The notes below the pieces were generated by a model. The model searched no databases. It worked only from the letters and a program-made list of their open reading frames with translations, and had not been told where the DNA came from. The translations under genes and the position numbers were made by a program. From IMG/VR virus record IMGVR_UViG_2671180254_000014: a stretch of DNA of 40,208 bases. One strand, given 5' to 3'. Positions within the stretch are counted from its first letter, which is position 1. Each line of letters opens with the position of its first letter. The stretch is from a virus. Lineage: Duplodnaviria > Heunggongvirae > Uroviricota > Caudoviricetes. Below, in pieces: positions 2,442 through 40,208 of this stretch.

Positions 2442-3383
2442 GTGAATAATATGACCGATATTAACGATGTAATCAAGACCATTGATGAACTTATTGATGG
2501 CGGCGTACTGACGCAGTATGCCATCGCCAGAGAGGCGGGAATTTCCGACGGCACATTATCGGCTTTCCGTAAGGGAAAATATAAAGGCGATAACGCTGCT
2601 GTGGCTGCTTCCCTGCGCTCCTGGTATGAGAACTGGAATAAACAAAGCGCACTGCCGGAACCGCCGCAGTTTGTGGAAACTCAGACAGTCCAGGAGCTGC
2701 GCGCACTGTTTCAGGCGGTTCGCCTGATGGGCTGTATTAACGTTATTGTGGGCGTACCGGGTGTGGGTAAAACGGCCACTGCCCGTAATTACTGCCAGGA
2801 GCAACCAAACACCTGGATGATCACCCTGTCACCCGCGCACTCCAGCGTCACGGAGTGTCTGCTGGAGCTGGCCGATGCGCTGGGGATTGATTACACCCGC
2901 GCGAACAAAGGGGCATTATCCCGCGCCATCCGCCGTCGCCTGACGGGAACGCGTGGACTGGTGATTGTGGATGAGGCGGATCATCTTGGTATTGACGGTC
3001 TGGAGCAACTCCGGGCAATTCAGGACGCCACGGGGATCGGGATGGTGCTTATTGGTAACCCGCGCGGATTGTTTAAAGGTGGACGCCGCGCCTTTGATGA
3101 TTTATCGCGCCTGTTCAGCCGTCTTGCCCGTACAAAACAACTTCGCAAGGCCAAAAAGGCGGATGTGCTGGCCATTGCCAGGGCATGGGGTATCAGTGGT
3201 GAGGCCGAGCTGGCCGTCATGCAGGCTATCGCTGAAAAGCCGGGAGCATTACGTGTTCTGACACATACGCTTAACCAGGCGTGGCTCACCGCCAGCGGTG
3301 AAGGCGCGGCGCTGACAGAAAAACATATTAATGCGGCCTTTAAAGAGGTTTATACCAACCCTGAATTACTCTCACAGGTGTGA
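2442..3383 (+). CDS. B: Mu B-like transposition ATPase
   Basis: 313-aa ORF with Walker A GVPGVGKT and Walker B-like VIVDEAD; follows transposase. Confidence 0.9.
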   Translation: MNNMTDINDVIKTIDELIDGGVLTQYAIAREAGISDGTLSAFRKGKYKGDNAAVAASLRSWYENWNKQSALPEPPQFVETQTVQELRALFQAVRLMGCINVIVGVPGVGKTATARNYCQEQPNTWMITLSPAHSSVTECLLELADALGIDYTRANKGALSRAIRRRLTGTRGLVIVDEADHLGIDGLEQLRAIQDATGIGMVLIGNPRGLFKGGRRAFDDLSRLFSRLARTKQLRKAKKADVLAIARAWGISGEAELAVMQAIAEKPGALRVLTHTLNQAWLTASGEGAALTEKHINAAFKEVYTNPELLSQV

Positions 3384-8557: not shown

Positions 8558-9043
8558 ATGAATCGCGCTTCCCTGATTACCTTAATACATGTCGCAAAAC
8601 GCGATCTACAGCTTGACCATGATACCTATACATCCGCGCTGCTGGCAGCCACCGGCAAATCCAGTTGCCGTGATATGTCACCCGGTGAGTTATCCCGCGT
8701 GCTGGATGTTTTCAAAAAACGCGGTTTTAAAGTGCGTCANNNNNNNNNNNNNNNNNNNNNNNNNNNNNNNNNNNNNNNNNNNNNNNNNNNNNNNNNNNNN
8801 NNNNNNNNNNNNNNNNNNNNNNNNNNNNNNNNNNNNNNNNNNNNNNNNNNNNNNNNNNNNNNNNNNNNNNNNNNNNNNNNNNNNNNNNNNNNNNNNNNNN
8901 NNNNNNNNNNNNNNNNNNNNNNNNNNNNNNNNNNNNNNNNNNNNNNNNNNNNNNNNNNNNNNNNNNNNNNNNNNNNNNNNNNNNNNNNNNNNNNNNNNNN
9001 NNNCAGCCCTGGATATGTCGGAACGTGCAGTGATGAGTTATGA
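8558..9043 (+). CDS. GemA-like protein (Mu gene 16 family), interrupted by N-run
   Basis: N-terminus MNRASLITLIHVAKRDLQLDHDTY... resembles Mu GemA; N-run 8740-9003 hides the middle, and the 3' end could be 9043 or 9083 depending on frame. Confidence 0.5.
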   Translation: MNRASLITLIHVAKRDLQLDHDTYTSALLAATGKSSCRDMSPGELSRVLDVFKKRGFKVRXXXXXXXXXXXXXXXXXXXXXXXXXXXXXXXXXXXXXXXXXXXXXXXXXXXXXXXXXXXXXXXXXXXXXXXXXXXXXXXXXXXXXXXXXSPGYVGTCSDEL

Positions 9044-17809: not shown

Positions 17810-18934
17810 ATGAAGACGAAAAACACGCCCAAACTTGCTTATGCCATTCTGAATGCCATCAGCCTGTCCGCAGACGGGGACGGTGACTGGTGTCAGATCA
17901 TGCCAGCCGGTCGGGTAAAGGCCCGTGACGGTCGCCCGGAAAAACCGGCGGAAGGCTGGCTGATTAACCATGCGGCCGTTGAGCGCATGGTATCCCGGGT
18001 TGTGGCGCTCAATCAGCCGGTAAAAATTGACTACAACCACCAGACCCTGATTAAGGGGCATCCGGCACCGGCTGCCGGTTTTGTCATGGCCTCACCGGAA
18101 AACTTCCGCTTCAGTGAAGAGCGGGGTTTTGAAGTGCGTCCGGACTGGAACCCTCCGGCCATTGAACACCTGCGCAATAACGAATTTCCCTGGTTTTCCC
18201 CGGTGATTGGTTATGACGAAATCACCGGTGAACCTGTTGAGCTTCGGATGCTGGCTATTACCGGTGACCCCGGTCTGACTGGCATGAATCCTGTCGCCGC
18301 ACTGTCGGCGGATGACCTTTATAACGCCTTAAACCCTCCTTTAAAGGACACCTCCATGAATGAGCAATTACGCCAGTTGCTGACGGCGCTCGGTCTGACC
18401 GTGGCCGACGGTGACGAATTTACACCGGAACTGGGCACGGCGGCGCTGTCTGCCCTTACCGGGATCAAAACCCGTGCGGATGCGCACGACACCCTGAAAA
18501 CGCAGGTTGCCAGCCTGTCGGCAGAGCTGGAAACCGCAAAAGGCACACCAACTGGCGGCACTATTGATCTGACGAAATACGTGCCCGTTGAGACGTATAA
18601 CGCCCTGCGTACCGAATATGTCGCGTTGTCGGCACAACACGGCAGCACCACGCTGGAGCAGTTGCTGGATAAGGCCGAGTCCGAAGGACGCATTTTCAAA
18701 AGCGAACGCGGATACATGGAAGGACTCGGACAACAGATTGGTGTTGCGGCACTTTCTGCACAGCTTGACGCCCGCCAGCCGGTTGCGGCTCTGACCACTC
18801 TTCAGACCGACACCGTAACCGTGCCGGATAAAAAGACCGCCACCGCTGCGCTGTCGGCTGAAGATATCGCCGCCGCCCATCTGCTGGGTAAAACCGAAGC
18901 CGAGTTCCTGAAAATGAAAGAGGAAATGCAATAA
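17810..18934 (+). CDS. head protease/scaffold protein (Mu I-like)
   Basis: 374-aa ORF preceding major head gene; Ala/Leu-rich coiled C-terminal half typical of scaffold. Confidence 0.75.
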   Translation: MKTKNTPKLAYAILNAISLSADGDGDWCQIMPAGRVKARDGRPEKPAEGWLINHAAVERMVSRVVALNQPVKIDYNHQTLIKGHPAPAAGFVMASPENFRFSEERGFEVRPDWNPPAIEHLRNNEFPWFSPVIGYDEITGEPVELRMLAITGDPGLTGMNPVAALSADDLYNALNPPLKDTSMNEQLRQLLTALGLTVADGDEFTPELGTAALSALTGIKTRADAHDTLKTQVASLSAELETAKGTPTGGTIDLTKYVPVETYNALRTEYVALSAQHGSTTLEQLLDKAESEGRIFKSERGYMEGLGQQIGVAALSAQLDARQPVAALTTLQTDTVTVPDKKTATAALSAEDIAAAHLLGKTEAEFLKMKEEMQ

Positions 18935-19881
18935 TGCCTACCCCGATCACACCGGCGATGATCACCGCCCTGATGACGGGCTACCGTTCTGATTTTCAGG
19001 CCGGGATGTCCATGGCTCCGTCTCAGTACCAGAAAATTGCGATGACCGTACCGTCCACGTCGAAATCCAACACCTACGGCTGGCTGGGGCAGTTCCCGCA
19101 GTTCCGTGAGTGGATCGGCTCCCGCGTCATCGAGAAGATGAAAGCCTATGGCTACGCCATCGTGAACAAAACCTTTGAAGGCACCGTTGCCATTAGCCGC
19201 GATGACTTTGAAGACGACAATCTTGGCATCTACTCCCCGTTGTTCCAGGAGATGGGGCGCGCTGCGGCGGCACAACCGGATGAACTGGTCTTTGCTGCAC
19301 TGCGTGATGGTCTGAATGCGGCCTGCTATGACGGCCAGAACTTCTTTGATACCGAACACCCTGTTTACCCCAAAGTGGATGGCTCCGGTGATGCACAGAT
19401 GGTCAGCAATATGTTTGTGGCAAAAACCGGCTCTGTCGGTGCACAGGCGGATTACAGCGGCCCGGCCTGGTATCTGCTTGACTGCTCCCGCGCGGTAAAA
19501 CCGCTGATTTATCAGGATCGCCGCAAGGCCGAACTGGTTGCCCAGACAAAAGTCGATGAAGGCCGTGCGTTTACTGATAACGAGTTTGTGTTCGGTGCTT
19601 CCGCCCGTCGCAATGTGGGCTACGGCTTCTGGCAGATGGCCTACATGATGCAGTCACCGCTGACGCTGGATGCGCTGTGGCACGGCTGGTCAGCCATGCG
19701 TGACTTTAAGGCTGACGGTGGCCGCAAACTCGGCATCAAACCCACCCATATTGTTGTCCCCACCTCGCTGGAAAAACAGGCGGTGCAGCTGCTGGAGCGC
19801 GAGCTGTTCGCGGACGGTAACACCACCGTCTCTAACGAGATGAAGGGCAAGCTGGAGCTGGTTGTCGCGGATTATCTGTAA
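18934..19881 (+). CDS. major head subunit (Mu T-like)
   Basis: 315-aa ORF, start overlaps previous stop; Mu order. Confidence 0.8.
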   Translation: MPTPITPAMITALMTGYRSDFQAGMSMAPSQYQKIAMTVPSTSKSNTYGWLGQFPQFREWIGSRVIEKMKAYGYAIVNKTFEGTVAISRDDFEDDNLGIYSPLFQEMGRAAAAQPDELVFAALRDGLNAACYDGQNFFDTEHPVYPKVDGSGDAQMVSNMFVAKTGSVGAQADYSGPAWYLLDCSRAVKPLIYQDRRKAELVAQTKVDEGRAFTDNEFVFGASARRNVGYGFWQMAYMMQSPLTLDALWHGWSAMRDFKADGGRKLGIKPTHIVVPTSLEKQAVQLLERELFADGNTTVSNEMKGKLELVVADYL

Positions 19882-31220: not shown

Positions 31221-32096
31221 TGTTTCATGTTGATAATAATTCCGGCGTGGCGAATATGCCTGCGCTGGCACCGGCGCAGAGTAATACCACCACCTGGTTT
31301 ACCGAAGGTGACGGACAAAAAGGTATCAGCTGGATTGGTCAGGACTGGCTGAATATTCTCCAGGCCGAACTGCTGAATATTCTGGCTGAAGCCAGTATTC
31401 AGCCGGATAAGGCGCAGTTAAACCAGCTTACGCTGTCCATTAAAGCCATTATCGCTGCGAATGCCTTTTCCCGGAAAAATAACCTGAAAGAAATTGCTGA
31501 TGCCGGTGCGGAGGCCCAGCGTCTGGCCCGTGGTTATCTTGGTCTGGGGACGCTTGCCACAAAAAACAGTCTTGGTCCCGCTGACGTTAATGCCCTGGCG
31601 AAGGATCAGAATCTCGCCGACCTGGAGAATAAGGGAACCGCCCGTAATAATCTGGATGTTTACAGNNNNNNNNNNNNNNNNNNNNNNNNNNNNNNNNNNN
31701 NNNNNNNNNNNNNNNNNNNNNNNNNNNNNNNNNNNNNNNNNNNNNNNNNNNNNNNNNNNNNNNNNNNNNNNNNNNNNNNNNNNNNNNNNNNNNNNNNNNN
31801 NNNNNNNNNNNNNNNNNNNNNNNNNNNNNNNNNNNNNNNNNNNNNNNNNNNNNNNNNNNNNNNNNNNNNNNNNNNNNNNNNNNNNNNNNNNNNNNNNNNN
31901 NNNNNNNNNNNNNNNNNNNNNNNNNNNGCCCGGAACATGGGAAAGCTGGGATCTGAATCTGGGGGGCGGCAATGTTCTTACCGGAATTAAAGTACAGGAT
32001 GTCGGTAAGAATACGGCAGATAACGTCGGCGGCGTGTATTACCGGCCGTTGCAGTATCTGTTAAATGGAGCATGGGTGACGGCTGCAAGTATATAA
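31220..32096 (+). CDS. tail fibre protein (constant N-terminal part plus currently joined variable C-terminus), interrupted by N-run
   Basis: N-terminal 148 aa to 31665, N-run 31666-31927, C-terminal 56 aa to TAA 32094-32096 in a different frame, so the gap length is not true. Confidence 0.65.
31531..31665 (+). repeat. left inverted repeat of invertible tail-fibre segment (at least 135 bp)
   Basis: Identical to the reverse complement of 33146-33280; ends at an N-run so true extent unknown. Confidence 0.85.
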
Positions 32097-32700: not shown

Positions 32701-33280
32701 TTATAACTGAGATACCGTAATCCATGTACCTCCGACTAATTTTTGCAGGGGTCTGAATGCTATAAAATCGTTTGAAGCATCAACTTTACTGTCAATCTGC
32801 AGGCCTGCCATAACATTACCGTACGCAGAGTAATATGCCCCACCGTACATTACCTGCCTGTTCTCTGCTCCCAGCCTGATATCCTGGATATATCGGGAAT
32901 CCGCATCCTGCTGTGTTATACCAGAAGTGATGTTTATGTCCTGCGTCCCGTCAAAGGGAACCCCATTAATATTTCTTGGGGTGGCGAGTCTATTCGCGGC
33001 AACGGCGGTGCCGTCCGATGGCAGAGCATTCGCCGCCCTGTTTACCGTTTCCCGTAAACCGACGTTATCGATAAAAGCCCCTTTATCCGGAATGTCTGCG
33101 CCGTTCTGCTCCCTGCGCAGGTAACGGTTATCACCTTCGCTTTTGCTGTAAACATCCAGATTATTACGGGCGGTTCCCTTATTCTCCAGGTCGGCGAGAT
33201 TCTGATCCTTCGCCAGGGCATTAACGTCAGCGGGACCAAGACTGTTTTTTGTGGCAAGCGTCCCCAGACCAAGATAACCA
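32701..33280 (-). CDS. alternate tail-fibre variable C-terminal segment (S'-like), 5' end in N-run
   Basis: Hand translation of minus strand from 33280: [44 protein letters not shown] (identical to residues 105-148 of the plus-strand fibre) then a divergent ~149 aa ending ...[10 protein letters not shown], stop at 32701-32703; not in ORF track because it lacks an ATG. Confidence 0.7.
33146..33280 (-). repeat. right inverted repeat of invertible tail-fibre segment
   Basis: Reverse complement identical to 31531-31665; abuts N-run 33281-33331. Confidence 0.85.
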
Positions 33281-33331
33281 NNNNNNNNNNNNNNNNNNNN
33301 NNNNNNNNNNNNNNNNNNNNNNNNNNNNNNN

Positions 33332-33834
33332 GTGCAGGATGTGAGCTGTTTTTCGAAGACAGAATAAGCGGTAAGACAAGGGAGCGTCCCGGACTTAAAC
33401 GCGCATTAAAGCGACTCCGGCCAGGGGATACCCTGCTGGTCTGGAAACTGGATCGCCTTGGACGCAGTATGCAGCACCTTGTCCTTTTAACAGAAGAACT
33501 CCGGCAACGCGGCGTTAACTTCCGCAGCATTACGGACAATATTGATACATCCACTCCCATGGGACGTTTCTTTTTCCATATAATGGGCGCGCTGGCGGAA
33601 ATGGAGCGGGAACTCATTATTGAACGTACACGCGCGGGTCTTGCTGCTGCCCGTGCTCAGGGGCGTCATGGCGGCAGACCTCAGAAACTGACAGAGAAAG
33701 AGCGGGAGCAAATCGCCCGTTTGCTGGCTAATGGCGAGTCCCGTAAACAAATCGCACTGATATTTGATATTGGCCTTTCCACCCTTTATCGTTATTTTCC
33801 TGCCTCACCAGCTCCGTCACCAAAAGTACCGTGA
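33332..33834 (+). CDS. gin: serine DNA invertase (Gin/Hin/Pin/Cin family), N-terminus lost in N-run
   Basis: In-frame translation from 33334 gives ...ELFFEDRISGKTRERPGLKRALKRLRPGDTLLVWKLDRLGRSMQHL... then GALAEMERELIIERT... and a C-terminal helix-turn-helix; catalytic Ser region falls in the gap. Confidence 0.85.
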
Positions 33835-33919
33835 CGCTTTTTTGAATTTCCGCAAAACACATATTTTTCAGCGGTCGCTATTCTGACTCTGTTTAATTCA
33901 GAAACAGGCAGAAAAGACG

Positions 33920-35974
33920 ATGTCAGACTCCAAGTGGAAAATGCTCTCCGCCATGCCCGGAGAGTTTTCAGTCAAGGTTGCCGGTGGCACGGTGGCATTT
34001 ATTGAAAGCCCTTTCCGCCCTTCGGGTAATAAAGGGGGGATCACCTTCGCAGACTGCGTGATCCGCTTCAGCACGAAAGAGCCATTATGGGTAATGCCGG
34101 TATCCGGTAATCCCAGTGCAGAAATCACCAGTTCAGGCGTGACTGGCATCATTCCAATCACATCTGACGTGGCCGGAACGCTCACGCCCTCCGACTGGAA
34201 TGCACCGGATAACGCCGGGCCTTCCGGTAGCACGAATGGCAGCAGTTCAGAGCCGGAATATTACTTTGTTGTCATTCTCGCGGGTCAGTCAAATGGCATG
34301 GCCTACGGCGAGGGGCTGCCGTTACCGGATTCGTTTGACCGCCCGGACCCACGCATTAAGCAACTGGCACGCCGCAGTACGGTAACGCCCAACGGTACGT
34401 CGTGTACATACAACGACATCATTCCGGCAGACCACTGCCTGCATGATGTTCAGGATATGAGCGGGATAAACCACCCGAAAGCTGATCTGGCAAAAGGCCA
34501 GTACGGGACTGTCGGTCAGGGGTTGCATATTGCCAAAAAACTGCTTCCCTATATCCCACAGAATGCCGGGATACTTCTGGTGCCCTGTTGTCGTGGCGGG
34601 TCAGCATTCACCACTGGAGCCGACGGCTCATTCAGTGAGGCCAGCGGTGCTTCCGCTGATTCTTCACGCTGGGGGGCCGGTAAACCTCTGTATCAGGACC
34701 TGGTAAGCCGCACCAAAGTCGCGCTGGCGAAAAACCCGAAAAACAAACTTCTGGCTGTGGTCTGGATGCAGGGAGAGGCAGACCTTGCCTCAGGAAGCCA
34801 GCAGCATAATAGTTTATTCACGGCCATGGTTCAGCAGTTCAGAACTGACCTGGCTCCGCTTGCTGCGCAGTGCGTGAGTGGAAATGCCACCACGGTGCCG
34901 TGGATTTGCGGTGATACCACGTATTACTGGAAAAACGCTGGCACCGATAAATATGAGGCAGTATACGGTGGCTACAAAGGCAAGGAAGCACAGAAAATTT
35001 TCTTTGTACCGTTCCTGACGGATGAGAATGGACAGAGCACGCCAACGAATGCTCCGGCGGAAGACCCGGATATTGTGGCTGTCGGGTATTACGGTGCAGC
35101 ATCCCGAACCCAGGGCAGTTTTGTTTCGACACAGCGTGACAGCCATTTCAGCTCATGGGCACGCAGGGGCGTCATTTCAGACCGTCTGGCCTCAGCTATT
35201 ATGCTCCATGCAGGGCGCACGGCTGAACTGATGCGCGGGCAGACCGTGACACCACCGGATGAGAAGCCGTCACCTGATACACCATCAAAACCGTCCACGC
35301 CACCCGCAGACACCACGACGATGAGTACGCTATTTGCTTACCGGGCATCTGAGTCTGAAGGACGGTTGACACCACAGGGTTGGGCTGCCGGAGGTGGCAA
35401 GGCTCAAATCGTGGATGATGCCGGAGCCAGCGGGGGTAAGGCAATGAAACTGACCAAGGAAACAGGAAGAGCCCCCTGGTACCTTGAGCATGATGCTGGT
35501 AATGGTGCGGACCTGCTGGGTAAAGGTGGTCTTGTCAGTTGTCGTTTTAAACTCGATGGCGCGCTTACGGCTAATCAGTACGCACTGGCGCTGTACTGGC
35601 CGGTTTCTGCCCTGCCGCAAGGGGTTACTCTGGAAGGAAATGCCGGTCATAACCTGCTGGCATCGTTCTACGTACAGAGCGATGCCACAGACCTTAACGT
35701 GATGTATCACAAAGGAAACACGGCGCAGAACACGAAGCTGGGGTCATTCGGCGCATTTAATAACGAATGGCATACGCTGGGCTTCCGTTTTGCCGGTAAC
35801 AACAGTATTGAGGTGACGCCGGTCATTGATGGTAAGGACGGGACACCATTCATGCTGTCGCAGTCTCCGGTCGGCACGTTTACGGCAGACAAGTTGCGCG
35901 TGACCGATATCACTAAAAATGCGACTTACCCGGTACTGATTGACAGTATCGTGGTGGAAGTGAATAACGCGTAA
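33920..35974 (+). CDS. SASA/SGNH-type carbohydrate esterase (sialate O-acetylesterase-like) with C-terminal beta-sandwich-like domain
   Basis: 684-aa ORF; GQSN motif at residues 122-125 (YYFVVILAGQSNGMAYGEG) and downstream WMQGEAD block; Ser/Pro/Thr-rich linker then ~200-aa Gly/Asn-rich C-terminal domain. Confidence 0.55.
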   Translation: MSDSKWKMLSAMPGEFSVKVAGGTVAFIESPFRPSGNKGGITFADCVIRFSTKEPLWVMPVSGNPSAEITSSGVTGIIPITSDVAGTLTPSDWNAPDNAGPSGSTNGSSSEPEYYFVVILAGQSNGMAYGEGLPLPDSFDRPDPRIKQLARRSTVTPNGTSCTYNDIIPADHCLHDVQDMSGINHPKADLAKGQYGTVGQGLHIAKKLLPYIPQNAGILLVPCCRGGSAFTTGADGSFSEASGASADSSRWGAGKPLYQDLVSRTKVALAKNPKNKLLAVVWMQGEADLASGSQQHNSLFTAMVQQFRTDLAPLAAQCVSGNATTVPWICGDTTYYWKNAGTDKYEAVYGGYKGKEAQKIFFVPFLTDENGQSTPTNAPAEDPDIVAVGYYGAASRTQGSFVSTQRDSHFSSWARRGVISDRLASAIMLHAGRTAELMRGQTVTPPDEKPSPDTPSKPSTPPADTTTMSTLFAYRASESEGRLTPQGWAAGGGKAQIVDDAGASGGKAMKLTKETGRAPWYLEHDAGNGADLLGKGGLVSCRFKLDGALTANQYALALYWPVSALPQGVTLEGNAGHNLLASFYVQSDATDLNVMYHKGNTAQNTKLGSFGAFNNEWHTLGFRFAGNNSIEVTPVIDGKDGTPFMLSQSPVGTFTADKLRVTDITKNATYPVLIDSIVVEVNNA

Positions 35975-35986
35975 GCAGGATAAAAA

Positions 35987-36019
35987 AATGCCGCCGGTAA
36001 GGGAAAACAAGAAACCGGC
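35987..36019 (-). terminator. hairpin with T-run on minus strand (GCCGCCGGT...ACCGGCGGC)
   Basis: 9-bp GC-rich inverted repeat with 15-nt loop just after esterase stop; flanked by A-runs on plus strand, so T-run follows on minus strand. Confidence 0.3.
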
Positions 36020-36118
36020 GGCAAAAAGATCGTTATATCCAAAGCAAAAAATGCAGTGCACCTTTTTACCTAACAGATATTACCGGTGTCAACACCATGT
36101 CAATAATTGGGAGGGATA

Positions 36119-36301
36119 ATGACATTTTTACAGCTTATTTTATTGTATTTCTGCACGGCAGTATGTGCGTTATATCTGGTGAGTGGTGGTTATAAGGCCA
36201 TCAGAAATTATGTTCGCCGCAAAATTGAGGACGCAGCAGCTGAAAAACTCAGTAAAACAGCGCAGGTAACTCCGCTCCCAAAAGACCCGACCCAGCCCTG
36301 A
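36119..36301 (+). CDS. small membrane protein (60 aa)
   Basis: GGGAGGG RBS 4-5 nt before ATG 36119; one N-terminal transmembrane helix then a basic tail. Confidence 0.4.
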   Translation: MTFLQLILLYFCTAVCALYLVSGGYKAIRNYVRRKIEDAAAEKLSKTAQVTPLPKDPTQP

Positions 36302-36336
36302 TTGCAGGGCTTTATTCCCGCATAAGGAGGATATAC

Positions 36337-36591
36337 ATGCCAGAAATTAAAGGCACCGTCACTGAAGACCTGGTAAAACAGGCACTGTATTCCGGTGAAG
36401 TAAATAAGTTGCTGAAAGCGCAGGTCCGCAAGGATTTTGAGGCACAAATCGACACTTACGTTGATGAAGTGCTGGCAAAACTTATTGGGCCAGCAGTTGC
36501 GGCCAGTGATGCTGATAATGAGCCGAAAACCGACGCGCAGCCAGAGCAACCAGACCCGGCTCAGCCCGGAACTGACAGTACCATGATGTAA
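36337..36591 (+). CDS. hypothetical protein with acidic Pro-rich C-terminus
   Basis: 84-aa ORF with AAGGAGG RBS 7 nt upstream of ATG. Confidence 0.5.
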   Translation: MPEIKGTVTEDLVKQALYSGEVNKLLKAQVRKDFEAQIDTYVDEVLAKLIGPAVAASDADNEPKTDAQPEQPDPAQPGTDSTMM

Positions 36592-36758
36592 CAATACAAA
36601 CCGGTGGTGTCCTCTGCCGGTTTGACACTAATGAAAACATCTTTGCCGCTATCCAGCCATATGTAATCGCTGGATAGTATTTCGTATTCAGAAATATAGC
36701 TGCTTATGGAGCAGTCAATCCTGCTTCCCCATCCGGGCAGGCAAATGAACCGGTATCA

Positions 36759-37052
36759 TTAGTCCGATTCACGCTTTTGTAGAATCGTTCCCAGAATGCT
36801 ATACAGCTCATTAGCCTGTTGCTCCATCATTGAGACGGAGGCTATACGGTGCAAAGTGATTTCAGGAGGTGGCACACCTCCATCTTCTTGCTGTGGAGGA
36901 AAAACATAAGATTTAATAAAAAAGTTGAAGCATATGAACTCTCCCGCACTCGAACTGTATTTGCAGGCATCTGAATAATCGGAAAAATAATCATTATAGA
37001 TTTCCGCATTTTCAATCATTTTTCGATTTCTCGTCGTTACATGATTGTCCAT
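36759..37052 (-). CDS. hypothetical protein in AT-rich segment, reverse strand
   Basis: 97-aa minus-strand ORF with TAAGAGG RBS; AT-rich composition unlike surrounding phage genes; convergent with the two small plus-strand ORFs. Confidence 0.45.
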   Translation of the reverse strand: MDNHVTTRNRKMIENAEIYNDYFSDYSDACKYSSSAGEFICFNFFIKSYVFPPQQEDGGVPPPEITLHRIASVSMMEQQANELYSILGTILQKRESD

Positions 37053-37244
37053 AGCAGCCTCTTACGCTGGCAATTAACCAATTGACTTCTATAAATTAGT
37101 TGATTTGTTTGCTTTGCGGTATTCAAATGTACAATCATTCAGCACTTATGCGTTACAGCACCGTTTAAAATTAGTGATCAAACTCATAAATTTTCGCTAA
37201 TGACATTTCGTGTTATTTGTTGTATCAATTAAATAAATCAAATC

Positions 37245-37261
37245 GATCGTTTTTGTCGATC
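37245..37261. promoter_or_regulatory. paired TCGATCG (Dam GATC) sites upstream of com-mom
   Basis: GATC at 37245-37248 and 37258-37261 (13 bp apart), ~50-65 bp upstream of com ATG; a third GATC at 37176-37179; Mu mom is regulated through upstream GATC methylation. Confidence 0.4.
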
Positions 37262-37308
37262 GATTGAGTGATAAAGATATCAACAACAAAGCAGGAGGTT
37301 ATGCGGCC

Positions 37309-37509
37309 ATGTATCGAAACATACGGTGCCGACATTGTAACAAGCTACTGGCACGAGCCAGCTTCAGTTATCTGGAAGTTAAATGTCCGCGCTGTAAAAC
37401 CCTCAATCAAATCACATCTCAGAGCGCCACAGAGCACCCCACATACACAAGGAAATCCTGTCGTGGGGAACAGAAAGCAAGTTACATCCCGTATCATCAG
37501 CACGCCTGA
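37309..37509 (+). CDS. com: Com, zinc-finger translational activator of mom
   Basis: [26 protein letters not shown] closely parallels Mu Com as I recall it (IRCKNCNKLL...RCPRCK); GCAGGAGG RBS; ATG 37309 inside ORF 37264..37509. Confidence 0.8.
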
Positions 37510-38200
37510 ACTTATTCACTATAACGACAATATCGTCGGTTATGGCTCCCGTGAGTTACGGGTTGAGACAATAAGTTGCTGGCTGGCCCGGCTGGTCGTC
37601 GTCAATAAACATTACAGCCATCGTTTCGTAAATAATTCCTACCTTCATCTGGGCATATTTTCAGAACGGGAGCTGGTTGGCGTAATGCAATGGGGTTATG
37701 CCCTTAATCCAAACAATGGTGCACGCGTCGTAACTGGCACGCAGAACCGCGAATATATGGAGCTTAACCGGTTATGGCTGCATGACTGTATGCCGAGAAA
37801 CTCCGAATCAAGGGCAATCAGTTACGCGCTCAAACTAATCAGACAACTTTATCCGCAGGTGCAGTGGGTTCAGTCGTTTGCAGATGAGCGTTGTGGCTGT
37901 CTTGGTGTCGTGTACCAGGCAAGCAATTTTGATTATGTAGGCAGTCATGAAACAACATTCTATGAACTTGATGGCGAGTGGTATCACGAGATTTGCAAGA
38001 ATGCAATCAAACGAGGAGGACAGCGAGGTGAACATCTGCGGGCTAATATCGACAGAGCCAGTGTTCATAAATTCCGTCAGTTTCGTTACATCCGGTTTCT
38101 GGACAAGAGAGCCAGAAAACGCCTTAACACAAAGCTATTCAAAGTCCAGCCTTACCCAAAACCACAAACAGTTAAAACTGGTTTGAAAGAGAGTGAATGA
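37463..38200 (+). CDS. mom: Mom-like DNA modification protein; start codon uncertain
   Basis: ORF 37268..38200 overlaps com 3' end in another frame as in Mu; GTG 37463 preceded by AAGGAAA is the only plausible start near the com stop; identity rests on synteny with com. Confidence 0.65.
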
Positions 38201-38332
38201 ACGCTTAAAAACTCATTCTAAAACTCAAAAGAAAAGCGCCGATTTAGTATCAAATAAGTTGCGTATCGGTGTTTTTCAGCGGTATCAAATGAAATGCAAA
38301 TCGGTATCAAAAAAATCGCCGCGCTATAATCA

Positions 38333-38517
38333 ACGCCACGGGGTTACGCCATGTCTGGCATTTACGCTGTACGGACACCTTAAAAGGTCCTTTACTGGAA
38401 AGTTATGAAATCTGCCCAATACCGGAAGTGGTGCTGGCAGCGCCAGAAGATTTGGTCGACTCTGCGCAGCGGCTTAGCGAGGTATGTCAGTGGCTGGCGG
38501 AAGCTGCACCGACGTAA
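38333..38517 (+). pseudogene. hyaF: 3' fragment of host hyaF (hydrogenase-1 operon), interrupted by the prophage
   Basis: Frame ending TAA 38515-38517 translates ...INATGLRHVWHLRCTDTLKGPLLESYEICPIPEVVLAAPEDLVDSAQRLSEVCQWLAEAAPT, matching my recalled HyaF C-terminus; lies directly upstream of appC; not in ORF track because it has no start codon. Confidence 0.55.
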
Positions 38518-38644: not shown

Positions 38645-40208
38645 GTGCGCATGTGGGATGTCATTGATTTATCGCGCTGGCAGTTTGCTCTGACCGCGCT
38701 GTATCACTTTTTATTTGTACCCCTTACCCTGGGGCTGATTTTTTTGCTGGCTATCATGGAAACCATTTACGTGGTCACCGGCAAAACAATCTACCGCGAT
38801 ATGACGCGCTTCTGGGGTAAGCTCTTCGGTATCAACTTTGCTCTTGGCGTGGCTACCGGCCTGACCATGGAGTTTCAGTTTGGTACTAACTGGTCATTCT
38901 ATTCCAACTATGTGGGCGATATTTTTGGCGCACCGCTGGCGATGGAAGCATTAATGGCCTTCTTCCTCGAATCCACCTTTGTCGGGCTTTTCTTCTTCGG
39001 CTGGCAGCGGCTGAATAAATACCAGCACCTGCTGGTGACGTGGCTGGTGGCGTTCGGTTCAAATCTCTCTGCATTGTGGATATTGAATGCCAACGGTTGG
39101 ATGCAATACCCGACCGGTGCGCATTTTGATATCGACACCCTACGTATGGAGATGNNNNNNNNNNNNNNNNNNNNNNNNNNNNNNNNNNNNNNNNNNNNNN
39201 NNNNNNNNNNNNNNNNNNNNNNNNNNNNNNNNNNNNNNNNNNNNNNNNNNNNNNNNNNNNNNNNNNNNNNNNNNNNNNNNNNNNNNNNNNNNNNNNNNNN
39301 NNNNNNNNNNNNNNNNNNNNNNNNNNNNNNNNNNNNNNNNNNNNNNNNNNNNNNNNNNNNNNNNNNNNNNNNNNNNNNNNNNNNNNNNNNNNNNNNNNNN
39401 NNNNNNNNNNNNNNNNNNNNTGGCGGCGATGGAAGGGGAGTGGCAAACGGAACCTGCTCCTGCACCGTTCCATGTGGTTGCCTGGCCGGAACAGGATCAA
39501 GAGCGTAACGCCTTTGCCATCAAAATTCCCGCGCTGTTAGGGATCCTCGCCACTCACTCATTAGATAAAACCGTGCCGGGTCTGAAAAATTTGATGGCTG
39601 AAACCTACCCACGCTTGCAACGCGGACGTATGGCCTGGCTGTTAATGCAGGAAATATCGCAAGGCAATCGTGAGCCGCATGTGTTGCAGGCATTCCGGGA
39701 ACTGGAAGGTGACCTGGGCTACGGCATGTTGCTCTCCCGCTATGCGCCGGATATGAATCATGTCACAGCCGCACAGTACCAGGCGGCGATGCGTGGCGCG
39801 ATACCTCAGGTTGCGCCGGTATTCTGGAGTTTCCGCATCATGGTGGGCTGTGGTTCCCTGCCGCTACTGGTGATGCTGATTGCGCTTGTCCAGACGCTGC
39901 GTGGCAAAATCGACCAGCATCGCTGGGTGCTGAAAATGGCGCTCTGGAGTTTGCCGTTGCCGTGGATTGCGATTGAAGCCGGGTGGTTTATGACCGAGTT
40001 TGGTCGTCAGCCGTGGGCGATACAGGACATCTTACCGACATACTCCGCGCACTCCGCTTTAACCACAGGACAACTGGCTTTCTCACTGATCATGATCGTA
40101 GGGCTTTACACCCTGTTCTTAATCGCCGAAGTCTACCTGATGCAGAAATATGCCCGTCTGGGGCCGAGCGCGATGCAGAGTGAACAACCGACGCAGCAAC
40201 AGGGGTAA
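38645..40208 (+). CDS. appC: cytochrome bd-II ubiquinol oxidase subunit I (AppC/CbdA), interrupted by N-run
   Basis: N-terminus [28 protein letters not shown]...[22 protein letters not shown] is cytochrome bd subunit I, AppC paralog rather than CydA; N-run 39155-39420; stop at 40206-40208. Confidence 0.85.

Follow-up and report, generated by a model that had tools for sequence, protein, structure and literature searches.

A gene on the plus strand (33920..35974; 684 codons plus stop) of a 40,208-nucleotide stretch of viral DNA, IMG/VR record IMGVR_UViG_2671180254_000014 (hereafter the window), encodes a predicted NanS-p-type sialate 9-O-acetylesterase within a Mu-like transposable prophage. 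The esterase and the two genes that follow it derive from the nanS-p cargo module of lambdoid phages, while the N-terminal DUF1737 region typical of lambdoid copies has been exchanged for an unrelated beta domain found in Mu-like prophages. The identity of the enzyme and the mosaic origin of its gene are very probably correct. What the exchanged domain does is discussed below, where an anchoring role on the Mu-like particle is tentatively preferred; for the explanation as a whole, that is, a NanS-p enzyme from a lambdoid module with a swapped N-terminal domain serving as anchor, we see about even chances.

Three domains joined by two linkers can be distinguished in the protein. The N-terminal domain (residues 1-97; 33920..34210, plus strand, as are all the following parts of the gene) belongs to no known family and is followed by linker 1 (residues 98-112, NAGPSGSTNGSSSEP; 34211..34255), which is predicted to be disordered, differs between copies and consists of 53% Ser/Thr/Pro and 20% Gly. 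Then come an SGNH type II / SASA esterase domain (residues 113-430; 34256..35209), linker 2 (residues 431-468; 35210..35323), whose core at residues 441-468 is 64% Ser+Thr+Pro, and a lectin-like jelly-roll C-domain that includes DUF6645 (residues 469-684; 35324..35971). The open reading frame (ORF) list together with Pfam, PHROG and Protein Data Bank (PDB) sequence matches identifies the gene as complete. A first-pass annotation of the same DNA had proposed a three-part protein with a GQSN motif at residues 122-125, an unassigned N-terminal domain of ~110 residues, a Ser/Pro/Thr-rich linker and a C-terminal domain of ~200 residues; ORF, motif, linker and domains were all recovered here, and the proposed domain boundaries proved right within about 15 residues.

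The product of the gene corresponds to RefSeq WP_001284083.1, annotated as 'DUF6645 domain-containing protein'; 'sialate O-acetylesterase' is the other name in use for the protein in RefSeq. An identical gene is annotated in 22 complete Escherichia coli genomes, and strains FORC_069, AST46 and DLI.5a are examples of its carriers. Comparison of lineages gives ratios of nonsynonymous to synonymous substitution rates (dN/dS) of 0.08 in the esterase domain and 0.12 in the C-domain, so that a chance ORF is ruled out; a pseudogene or an annotation artefact is likewise ruled out by the selection analysis. A match to phrog_143 extends from residue 71 to the end of the protein (E=1.7e-296). No hydrophobic stretch typical of a signal peptide is present in the first 40 residues (maximum Kyte-Doolittle mean over 15 residues, 1.08), and no convincing Shine-Dalgarno sequence was found 5' of the ATG. 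A full-length AlphaFold2 model built from 20 homologues was unusable (mean predicted local distance difference test score, 41) because the alignment is nearly invariant; the esterase and the C-domain were therefore interpreted through homologues of known crystal structure.

Pfam places the SASA family (PF03629) at residues 117-312 with 51.3 bits, above the gathering cut-off of 24.8, in agreement with the family proposed in the first-pass annotation. A PDB sequence search aligned residues 110-428 with the E. coli protein NanS (YjhS, 3PT5; E=1.8e-117), and 57.8% of the 315 aligned residues are identical. The fold of NanS is SGNH type II; Ser19 and His301 are catalytic, a catalytic Asp is lacking and the oxyanion hole is made of Gln18 plus a Gly (PMC9063846). 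With one consistent 11-residue tag offset, Gln18 and Ser19 fall on Q123 and S124 of the GQSN motif (34283..34294, plus strand), and His301 falls on H409 in an RDSH motif (codon 35144..35146, plus strand); the GQSN serine therefore occupies the catalytic position, as it should if the motif had been read correctly. Judged by this alignment, the protein is a putative NanS-p-type sialate 9-O-acetylesterase with Ser124 and His409 as its dyad and Gln123 plus a Gly as its oxyanion hole. It shares with chromosomal NanS the dyad, the Gln oxyanion residue and the fold. NanS differs in being a single-domain, chromosomally encoded protein of 326 residues that lacks both the N-terminal domain and the C-terminal lectin-like one. 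The esterases of enterohaemorrhagic E. coli prophages, initially named as the nearest analogues, are in fact true homologues. From residue 94 on, the window protein is 65% identical to the lambdoid NanS-p of 933W (L0105/z1466), and other lambdoid alleles reach 89-91% identity over ~85% of its length (84-86% depending on the allele). The NanS-p enzymes of EDL933 and O104:H4 cleave 5-N-acetyl-9-O-acetylneuraminic acid (Neu5,9Ac2) as well as mono-, di- and tri-O-acetylated mucin glycans, and NanS-p enables growth of the lysogen on Neu5,9Ac2 (review PMC8065619).

The C-terminal domain had been described as looking like a carbohydrate-binding beta-sandwich, and it is closely related to a lectin-like jelly-roll of known structure. 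DUF6645 (PF20350) is found by Pfam at residues 533-650 (E=7e-68), and residues 469-683 match the 'NanS-p' chain 6YP6 (E=7e-98) at 68.8% identity over 215 residues. The corresponding domain of phi24B vb_24B_21 is a lectin-like jelly-roll with Y510, Y515, Y540 and F611 proposed as the aromatics of its sugar site (PMC10462455). All four are kept in the window protein, under a single offset, as Y554, Y559, Y584 and F654. As a separate observation, the C-domains of four other Mu-type esterases (loci L038 and L041-L043) are merely 40-46% identical to that of the window, so the lectin-like domain also comes in exchangeable types, as has been reported for lambdoid NanS-p (CTR groups).

The closest relative carrying DUF1737 (P0031) is 91% identical over the shared part and lies in a lambdoid late region with the order antiterminator Q - ... 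- esterase - DUF1378 - DUF826 - holin - lysozyme - Rz1; in 933W, too, L0105 is followed by a DUF1378 homologue, which is left unannotated there. In the window the esterase gene is followed by a DUF1378 gene encoding a small membrane protein (36119..36301, plus strand), a partner of nanS-p in lambdoid and Mu-like contexts alike, and by a DUF826 gene (36337..36591, plus strand), the third member of the transplanted module, while Q and holin are absent around the esterase. At the DNA level, 34252..36253 (plus strand) is 87.8% identical to the P0031 locus; the homology begins in esterase codon 111 and stops inside DUF1378. The protein alignment agrees with this, being unrelated up to residue ~108-112 and collinear from 'EPEYY(F/Y)VV..GQSN' onward. 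By these comparisons the esterase, DUF1378 and DUF826 genes together are the cargo module known as nanS-p from lambdoid late regions, placed in the window between gin and com/mom. The recombination junction lies inside the gene at codon 111, and the part upstream of it, DUF1737 in lambdoid phages, is replaced by a beta domain of ~97 residues and a linker.

With lambdoid NanS-p (933W, and vb_24B_21/gp84 of phi24B) the window protein shares the Ser/Thr/Pro linker, the DUF6645 C-domain and the DUF1378 and DUF826 partners. It differs from them in lacking DUF1737 (PF08410), in the place of which stands the unrelated beta domain, and in being encoded by a transposable prophage of the Mu-like myovirus type. 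Lambdoid nanS-p genes lie between Q/stx and holin, whereas the window gene lies between gin and com/mom; from this position it follows that control by the Q antiterminator at pR' cannot apply. The protein is a NanS-p by its catalytic domain, its C-domain and its gene neighbours; it departs from the type in having neither a DUF1737 N-terminal domain nor a lambdoid late location, both of which are regarded as characteristic in the literature.

The N-terminal domain is the part that sets this protein apart. Residues 1-112 have no match in Pfam, NCBIfam or PHROGs, in line with their having been left unassigned at first, and DUF1737 gives no match in the window protein at E up to 1. Residues 1-97 are predicted to form a compact all-beta domain of six strands, folded as a small cupin/jelly-roll-like barrel, and they show no sequence or confident fold likeness to any known carbohydrate-binding module. 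DUF1737, in contrast, consists of one helix and a three-stranded sheet, and the two modules are unrelated (15-25% identity over a forced alignment).

Three lineages of the domain can be recognized, at ~100%, ~60% (59-62% between the two from E. coli) and 30% identity; they are of equal length and have 19 invariant residues in common. Comparison of the two E. coli lineages gives a dN of 0.29 with synonymous sites saturated, and 64% of the four-fold sites in codons for conserved amino acids differ, a pattern that identifies the domain as a real coding region under purifying selection. Among Mu-type copies the mean identity is 98.1% for the N-terminal domain against 86.1% for the esterase and C-domain, and the N-terminal domain remains 98% conserved where the esterase domains of the copies share no more than 77-86% of their residues. 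Identity of the esterase and C-domain is 81-93% to lambdoid copies and 81-100% to other Mu-type copies. From this pattern of identities it follows that the catalytic and lectin parts recombine across phage types and that the N-terminal domain never leaves the Mu backbone.

Two origins for the domain were considered and rejected. Derivation from a duplicated structural gene of the phage finds no paralogue in a tblastn search against the six-frame translation of the window (best E, 0.085), nor does the domain resemble any other window product, the N-terminal part of the fibre included. In-frame fusion of the esterase to a once independent Mu gene was dismissed because no stand-alone relative turned up in the searches of cluster representatives, species-representative genomes and IMG/VR described below.

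The distribution of the N-terminal domain is narrow. Two architectures are seen among 1,574 homologues, one of 678-691 residues with the N-terminus of the window protein and without DUF1737, the other of ~647-650 residues with DUF1737, SASA and DUF6645. Among 50,697 phage records searched with tblastn, the domain occurs in two, at 59% identity; both matches are annotated as 'inserted Bacteriophage Mu-like phage' in records of Shiga toxin (Stx) phages, and these two insertions are also the only full-length matches. The rest of the protein has homologues in 349 phage records, nearly all of Stx or lambdoid phages. DNA coding for the domain is present in 32 of the 5,426 complete E. coli genomes, always within the esterase gene and in at most three copies per genome. 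These counts bear out the early remark that such an esterase is unusual in a Mu-like phage.

Neither of two word-indexed searches for homologues of the domain yielded anything beyond fragments of the same protein. Exhaustive HMMER searching of 1.84 billion cluster representatives yielded such fragments and one Salmonella enterica sequence at 30% identity, in which the domain is likewise fused to 'EYYFVIPVAGQSN' and which sits downstream of an invertase in a Mu-type prophage with gp45-gp48 baseplate genes. The domain is absent from the GTDB species representatives (185,579 genomes). IMG/VR holds 34 loci, all of the two E. coli lineages, with the esterase core directly after the domain in 34/34; on contigs that reach far enough, the genes are arranged as baseplate - Tfa - (gin) - esterase - DUF1378 - DUF826 - com - mom. 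Fusion of the domain to the esterase between the tail-fibre/gin region and com/mom is found in five annotated genomes, in the Salmonella contig and in all 34 IMG/VR loci, and the annotated genomes with diverged copies have the same gene order at different chromosomal sites. On the evidence of these searches the domain appears to occur only as a fusion to the esterase, and only in E. coli/Shigella and Salmonella prophages of the Mu-like type. No paper describing this DUF1737-less, Mu-type variant was found. A study of NanS-p diversity covers DUF1737-type N-termini only and does not mention Mu-like phages, a paper reporting Mu-like phages of CC119 Shiga toxin-producing E. coli does not mention the esterase, and no paper in the literature searched contains the term 'DUF6645'.

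The window is a Mu-like transposable prophage, as the first-pass annotation had it. MuA (278-2368; Pfam Mu-transpos_C) and MuB (2442-3383; Pfam Phage-MuB_C) are present, the major head protein (18934-19881) is 67% identical to Mu gpT, and a tail-fibre assembly gene is present in addition to the head and transposition genes. The inserted module is bordered on the left by a partly N-masked Gin/Hin-type DNA invertase gene (33262..33834, plus strand) and on the right by com (37309-37509) and mom (37463-38200), both on the plus strand; the interval from gin to com holds the esterase, DUF1378 and DUF826 genes and one minus-strand ORF. The prophage ends at ~38328, where homology to the other copies stops, and is followed by a chromosomal cytochrome bd oxidase gene; insertion sites of the Mu-like copies vary (hofC, yfcU, torY, cyd). 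An isolated infectious relative, Yersinia phage vB_YpM_Tongde, has a capsid protein 91% identical to that of the window. In Tongde com-mom comes directly after the invertase and the whole esterase module is missing, which identifies the ~3.4-kb stretch in the window as an accessory insertion.

Characterised homologues suggest how the enzyme would act. With no signal peptide, the protein would be made in the cytoplasm and would reach its substrate only once the phage lyses the cell. It would then take 9-O-acetyl groups off free and mucin-bound Neu5,9Ac2 while its C-domain keeps it on the glycan, and the deacetylated sialic acid would become available to sialidases and to the nan pathway of E. 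coli.

A role for the N-terminal domain is suggested by phi24B, in which gp84, an esterase of the NanS-p type, is an abundant virion protein (bioRxiv 10.64898/2026.04.10.717836). Residues 2-57 of gp84, the DUF1737 module, form a hexamer in the pore of the central hexons of a T=9 capsid, and the esterase and lectin parts hang from it by linkers and are cleaved off later (bioRxiv 10.64898/2026.04.10.717836). The window protein has the same plan of a small N-terminal module, a flexible linker and then an esterase-lectin cargo, and its swap point corresponds to the end of the anchor-plus-linker region of gp84, with the difference that virion association has been demonstrated for gp84 and would be a prediction for the window protein. 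Since the module replaced is the capsid anchor of phi24B, the likeliest role of the N-terminal domain would be that of an equivalent anchor, re-targeting the same cargo to the Mu-like particle, either capsid or tail. The Mu-type T=7 capsid is built from another major capsid protein than that of phi24B, and capsids of this type can bear optional decoration proteins, as in the Mu-like siphophage JBD30 (PMC11445458). We favor this role over the alternatives weighed below, tentatively and at somewhat less than even chance. An esterase-lectin cargo displayed on the Mu-like virion could aid binding or movement of the phage in mucus. The broader proposal, that the domain is a new docking module and the esterase-lectin unit a cargo exchangeable between the T=9 capsid of a lambdoid podovirus and the T=7 capsid of a Mu-like myovirus, with the exchange of a small N-terminal anchor being all that is needed, is possible and slightly more doubtful than the anchor role itself.

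Several observations weigh against a virion anchor. The gene is not part of the head or tail operons, being located downstream of gin, and when 33000-38400 was scanned for promoters and terminators, signals were no more numerous than in shuffled sequence, which lends no support to high-level late expression. Tongde lacks the module and has a capsid protein 91% identical, so that the esterase is not needed for assembly. The capsid of Mu itself is undecorated (PMC11915804). DUF1737 is widespread and mostly stand-alone (bioRxiv 10.64898/2026.04.10.717836), whereas no stand-alone relatives of the N-terminal domain exist among the 1.84 billion cluster representatives, the 185,579 species-representative genomes and IMG/VR. 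Finally, the two E. coli lineages of the domain are 59-62% identical and their capsid proteins 90-94%; a divergence of ~40% against 6-10% does not fit what tight co-evolution with the capsid predicts.

Some of these observations would be expected if the N-terminal domain were a soluble accessory module (glycan-binding, substrate-targeting or oligomerising) unrelated to the virion, and the enzyme a pure lysogenic-conversion factor, released at lysis or leaked, that feeds O-acetylated sialic acids to the host. The gene would then be at home in the accessory right end beside gin, a gene that is active in Mu lysogens, and Tongde, with its near-identical capsid protein, manages without the module. 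A cupin/jelly-roll-like barrel is moreover a common shape among carbohydrate-binding modules and dimerisation domains, and the nutritional role of NanS-p is experimentally supported (PMC8065619). This reading leaves unexplained, though, why the swap falls exactly at the position of the capsid anchor and why the N-terminal domain never enters lambdoid copies while the rest recombines freely, and it has to accommodate a domain with no sequence or confident fold likeness to known carbohydrate-binding modules. We regard it as rather unlikely, and second to the anchor role.

A third reading, improbable in our judgment, makes the protein a receptor-modifying enzyme of the tail, its N-terminal domain docking to baseplate or fibres and its esterase deacetylating a bacterial surface glycan at adsorption, for instance an O-acetylated O-antigen or an O-acetylated polysialic-acid capsule. 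Coliphage tail spikes and fibres with SGNH esterases include O-antigen deacetylases with an N-terminal particle-docking module, and such tailspikes of some coliphages deacetylate bacterial surface glycans at adsorption. The window protein is like them in being a phage-borne SGNH esterase with an N-terminal module; its gene adjoins the tail-fibre/invertible-segment region, at ~300 nucleotides from the tail-fibre assembly gene in a sub-lineage lacking gin, and the SASA region weakly matches PHROG families annotated as 'tail protein' (E=1.2e-6) and 'tail fiber protein' (E=0.018). O-acetyl groups of lipopolysaccharide have also been raised as a possible substrate of NanS-p (PMC8065619). The catalytic domain, however, belongs to the NanS branch, being 57.8% identical to NanS itself and up to 100% identical to other copies of the NanS-p family, in which sialate is the substrate of those members that have been assayed. 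No trimerisation or docking domain like those of tail spikes was detected in the protein, its N-terminal domain is unlike the phage's own fibre N-terminus or any window product, and both Tongde and Mu adsorb without such an enzyme. Least probable of all, and very improbable indeed, is that the N-terminal region is a by-product of illegitimate recombination, tolerated for its start codon. Its lack of relatives beyond the esterase fusion and of a convincing Shine-Dalgarno sequence 5' of the ATG would agree with such an origin; the conservation of length and of the 19 invariant residues across the three lineages, the dN of 0.29 under synonymous saturation, the 64% of four-fold sites that differ in conserved codons, the 98% conservation beside esterase domains diverged to 77-86% and the predicted compact beta domain all argue against it.

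Few prophage cargo genes have been shown to benefit pathogenic E. coli. Those for NanS-p esterases belong to this group, the benefit being growth on the O-acetylated sialic acids of mucin, and the present findings extend the reservoir of nanS-p past lambdoid and Stx phages. The enzymology is as already known; the novelty lies at the N-terminus, in a compact orphan domain for which a binding partner can be tested directly. The two architectures provide a natural experiment on whether the N-terminal domain specifies the particle that carries the enzyme. If the domain is indeed a new docking module, the display of a mucus-glycan-modifying enzyme would be a portable trait among gut prophages, and a second, independent anchor-capsid pair would be at hand for the engineering of phage display. 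Moreover, the homologous sequence common to Mu-like and lambdoid prophages seems to mediate recombination between them.

Some copies are embedded in rearranged loci. Lambdoid-type DUF1378 (57-59% identity) follows the esterase C-domain in two IMG/VR loci, L010 (2158-3136) and L015 (4949-5922, 10831-12691), com/mom are inverted and about 5 kb away in L015, and the Mu-like prophage of E. coli JKHS016 (L001) is scrambled too. This suggests that nanS-p copies common to Mu-like and lambdoid prophages are recombination substrates that rearrange the chromosome.

Some features of the window itself were also recorded. It covers 38.3 kb of prophage (1-38328), with the repressor end missing; the related Mu-like insertion in LC727881 (35677-75644) is annotated as 39,968 bp, and the record of the packaged Tongde genome (MT591577) has 39,492 bp including host flanks. 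Runs of N are found at 8740-9003 (264 bases), 31666-31927 (262), 33281-33331 (51) and 39155-39420 (266), and the sequence they mask includes some of the tail-fibre/G-segment region and the 5' portion of gin. Dips in GC content at 8-9 kb and 31-32 kb were rejected as islands, being artefacts of N-masked runs.

A perfect 9-bp GC-rich hairpin with a 15-nucleotide loop (GCCGCCGGT / ACCGGCGGC; 35990-36022) lies 16 nucleotides past the esterase stop with A-run flanks; it resembles an intrinsic terminator on the minus strand only, no T-run following it on the plus strand. The minus-strand ORF between DUF826 and com (36759-37052, 97 residues) lies in an AT-rich stretch, has no Pfam or PHROG match and is represented in RefSeq by a shorter hypothetical protein; this stretch is homologous neither to the lambdoid locus nor to Tongde. 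Immediately 5' of com is a GATC-rich dyad (37241-37265; AATCGATCG-TTTTTGT-CGATCGATT), which we take to resemble the regulatory region of Mu mom controlled by Dam methylation and OxyR. If this dyad is the mom control region, the inserted module lies upstream of it and not inside the mom operon.

Variation was also seen on both sides of the module in other copies. A sub-lineage (L014, L015, L019, L022, L028) lacks gin, of which L029 and L030 keep a 69-nucleotide remnant; its esterase gene lies close to the tail-fibre assembly gene, at the distance given above, and its fibre segment is presumably locked in one orientation. In E. coli CI5 (L004, 10271-11323) a DNA cytosine methyltransferase gene follows Com in place of Mom, an exchange of DNA-modification cargo that is apparently under Com control.

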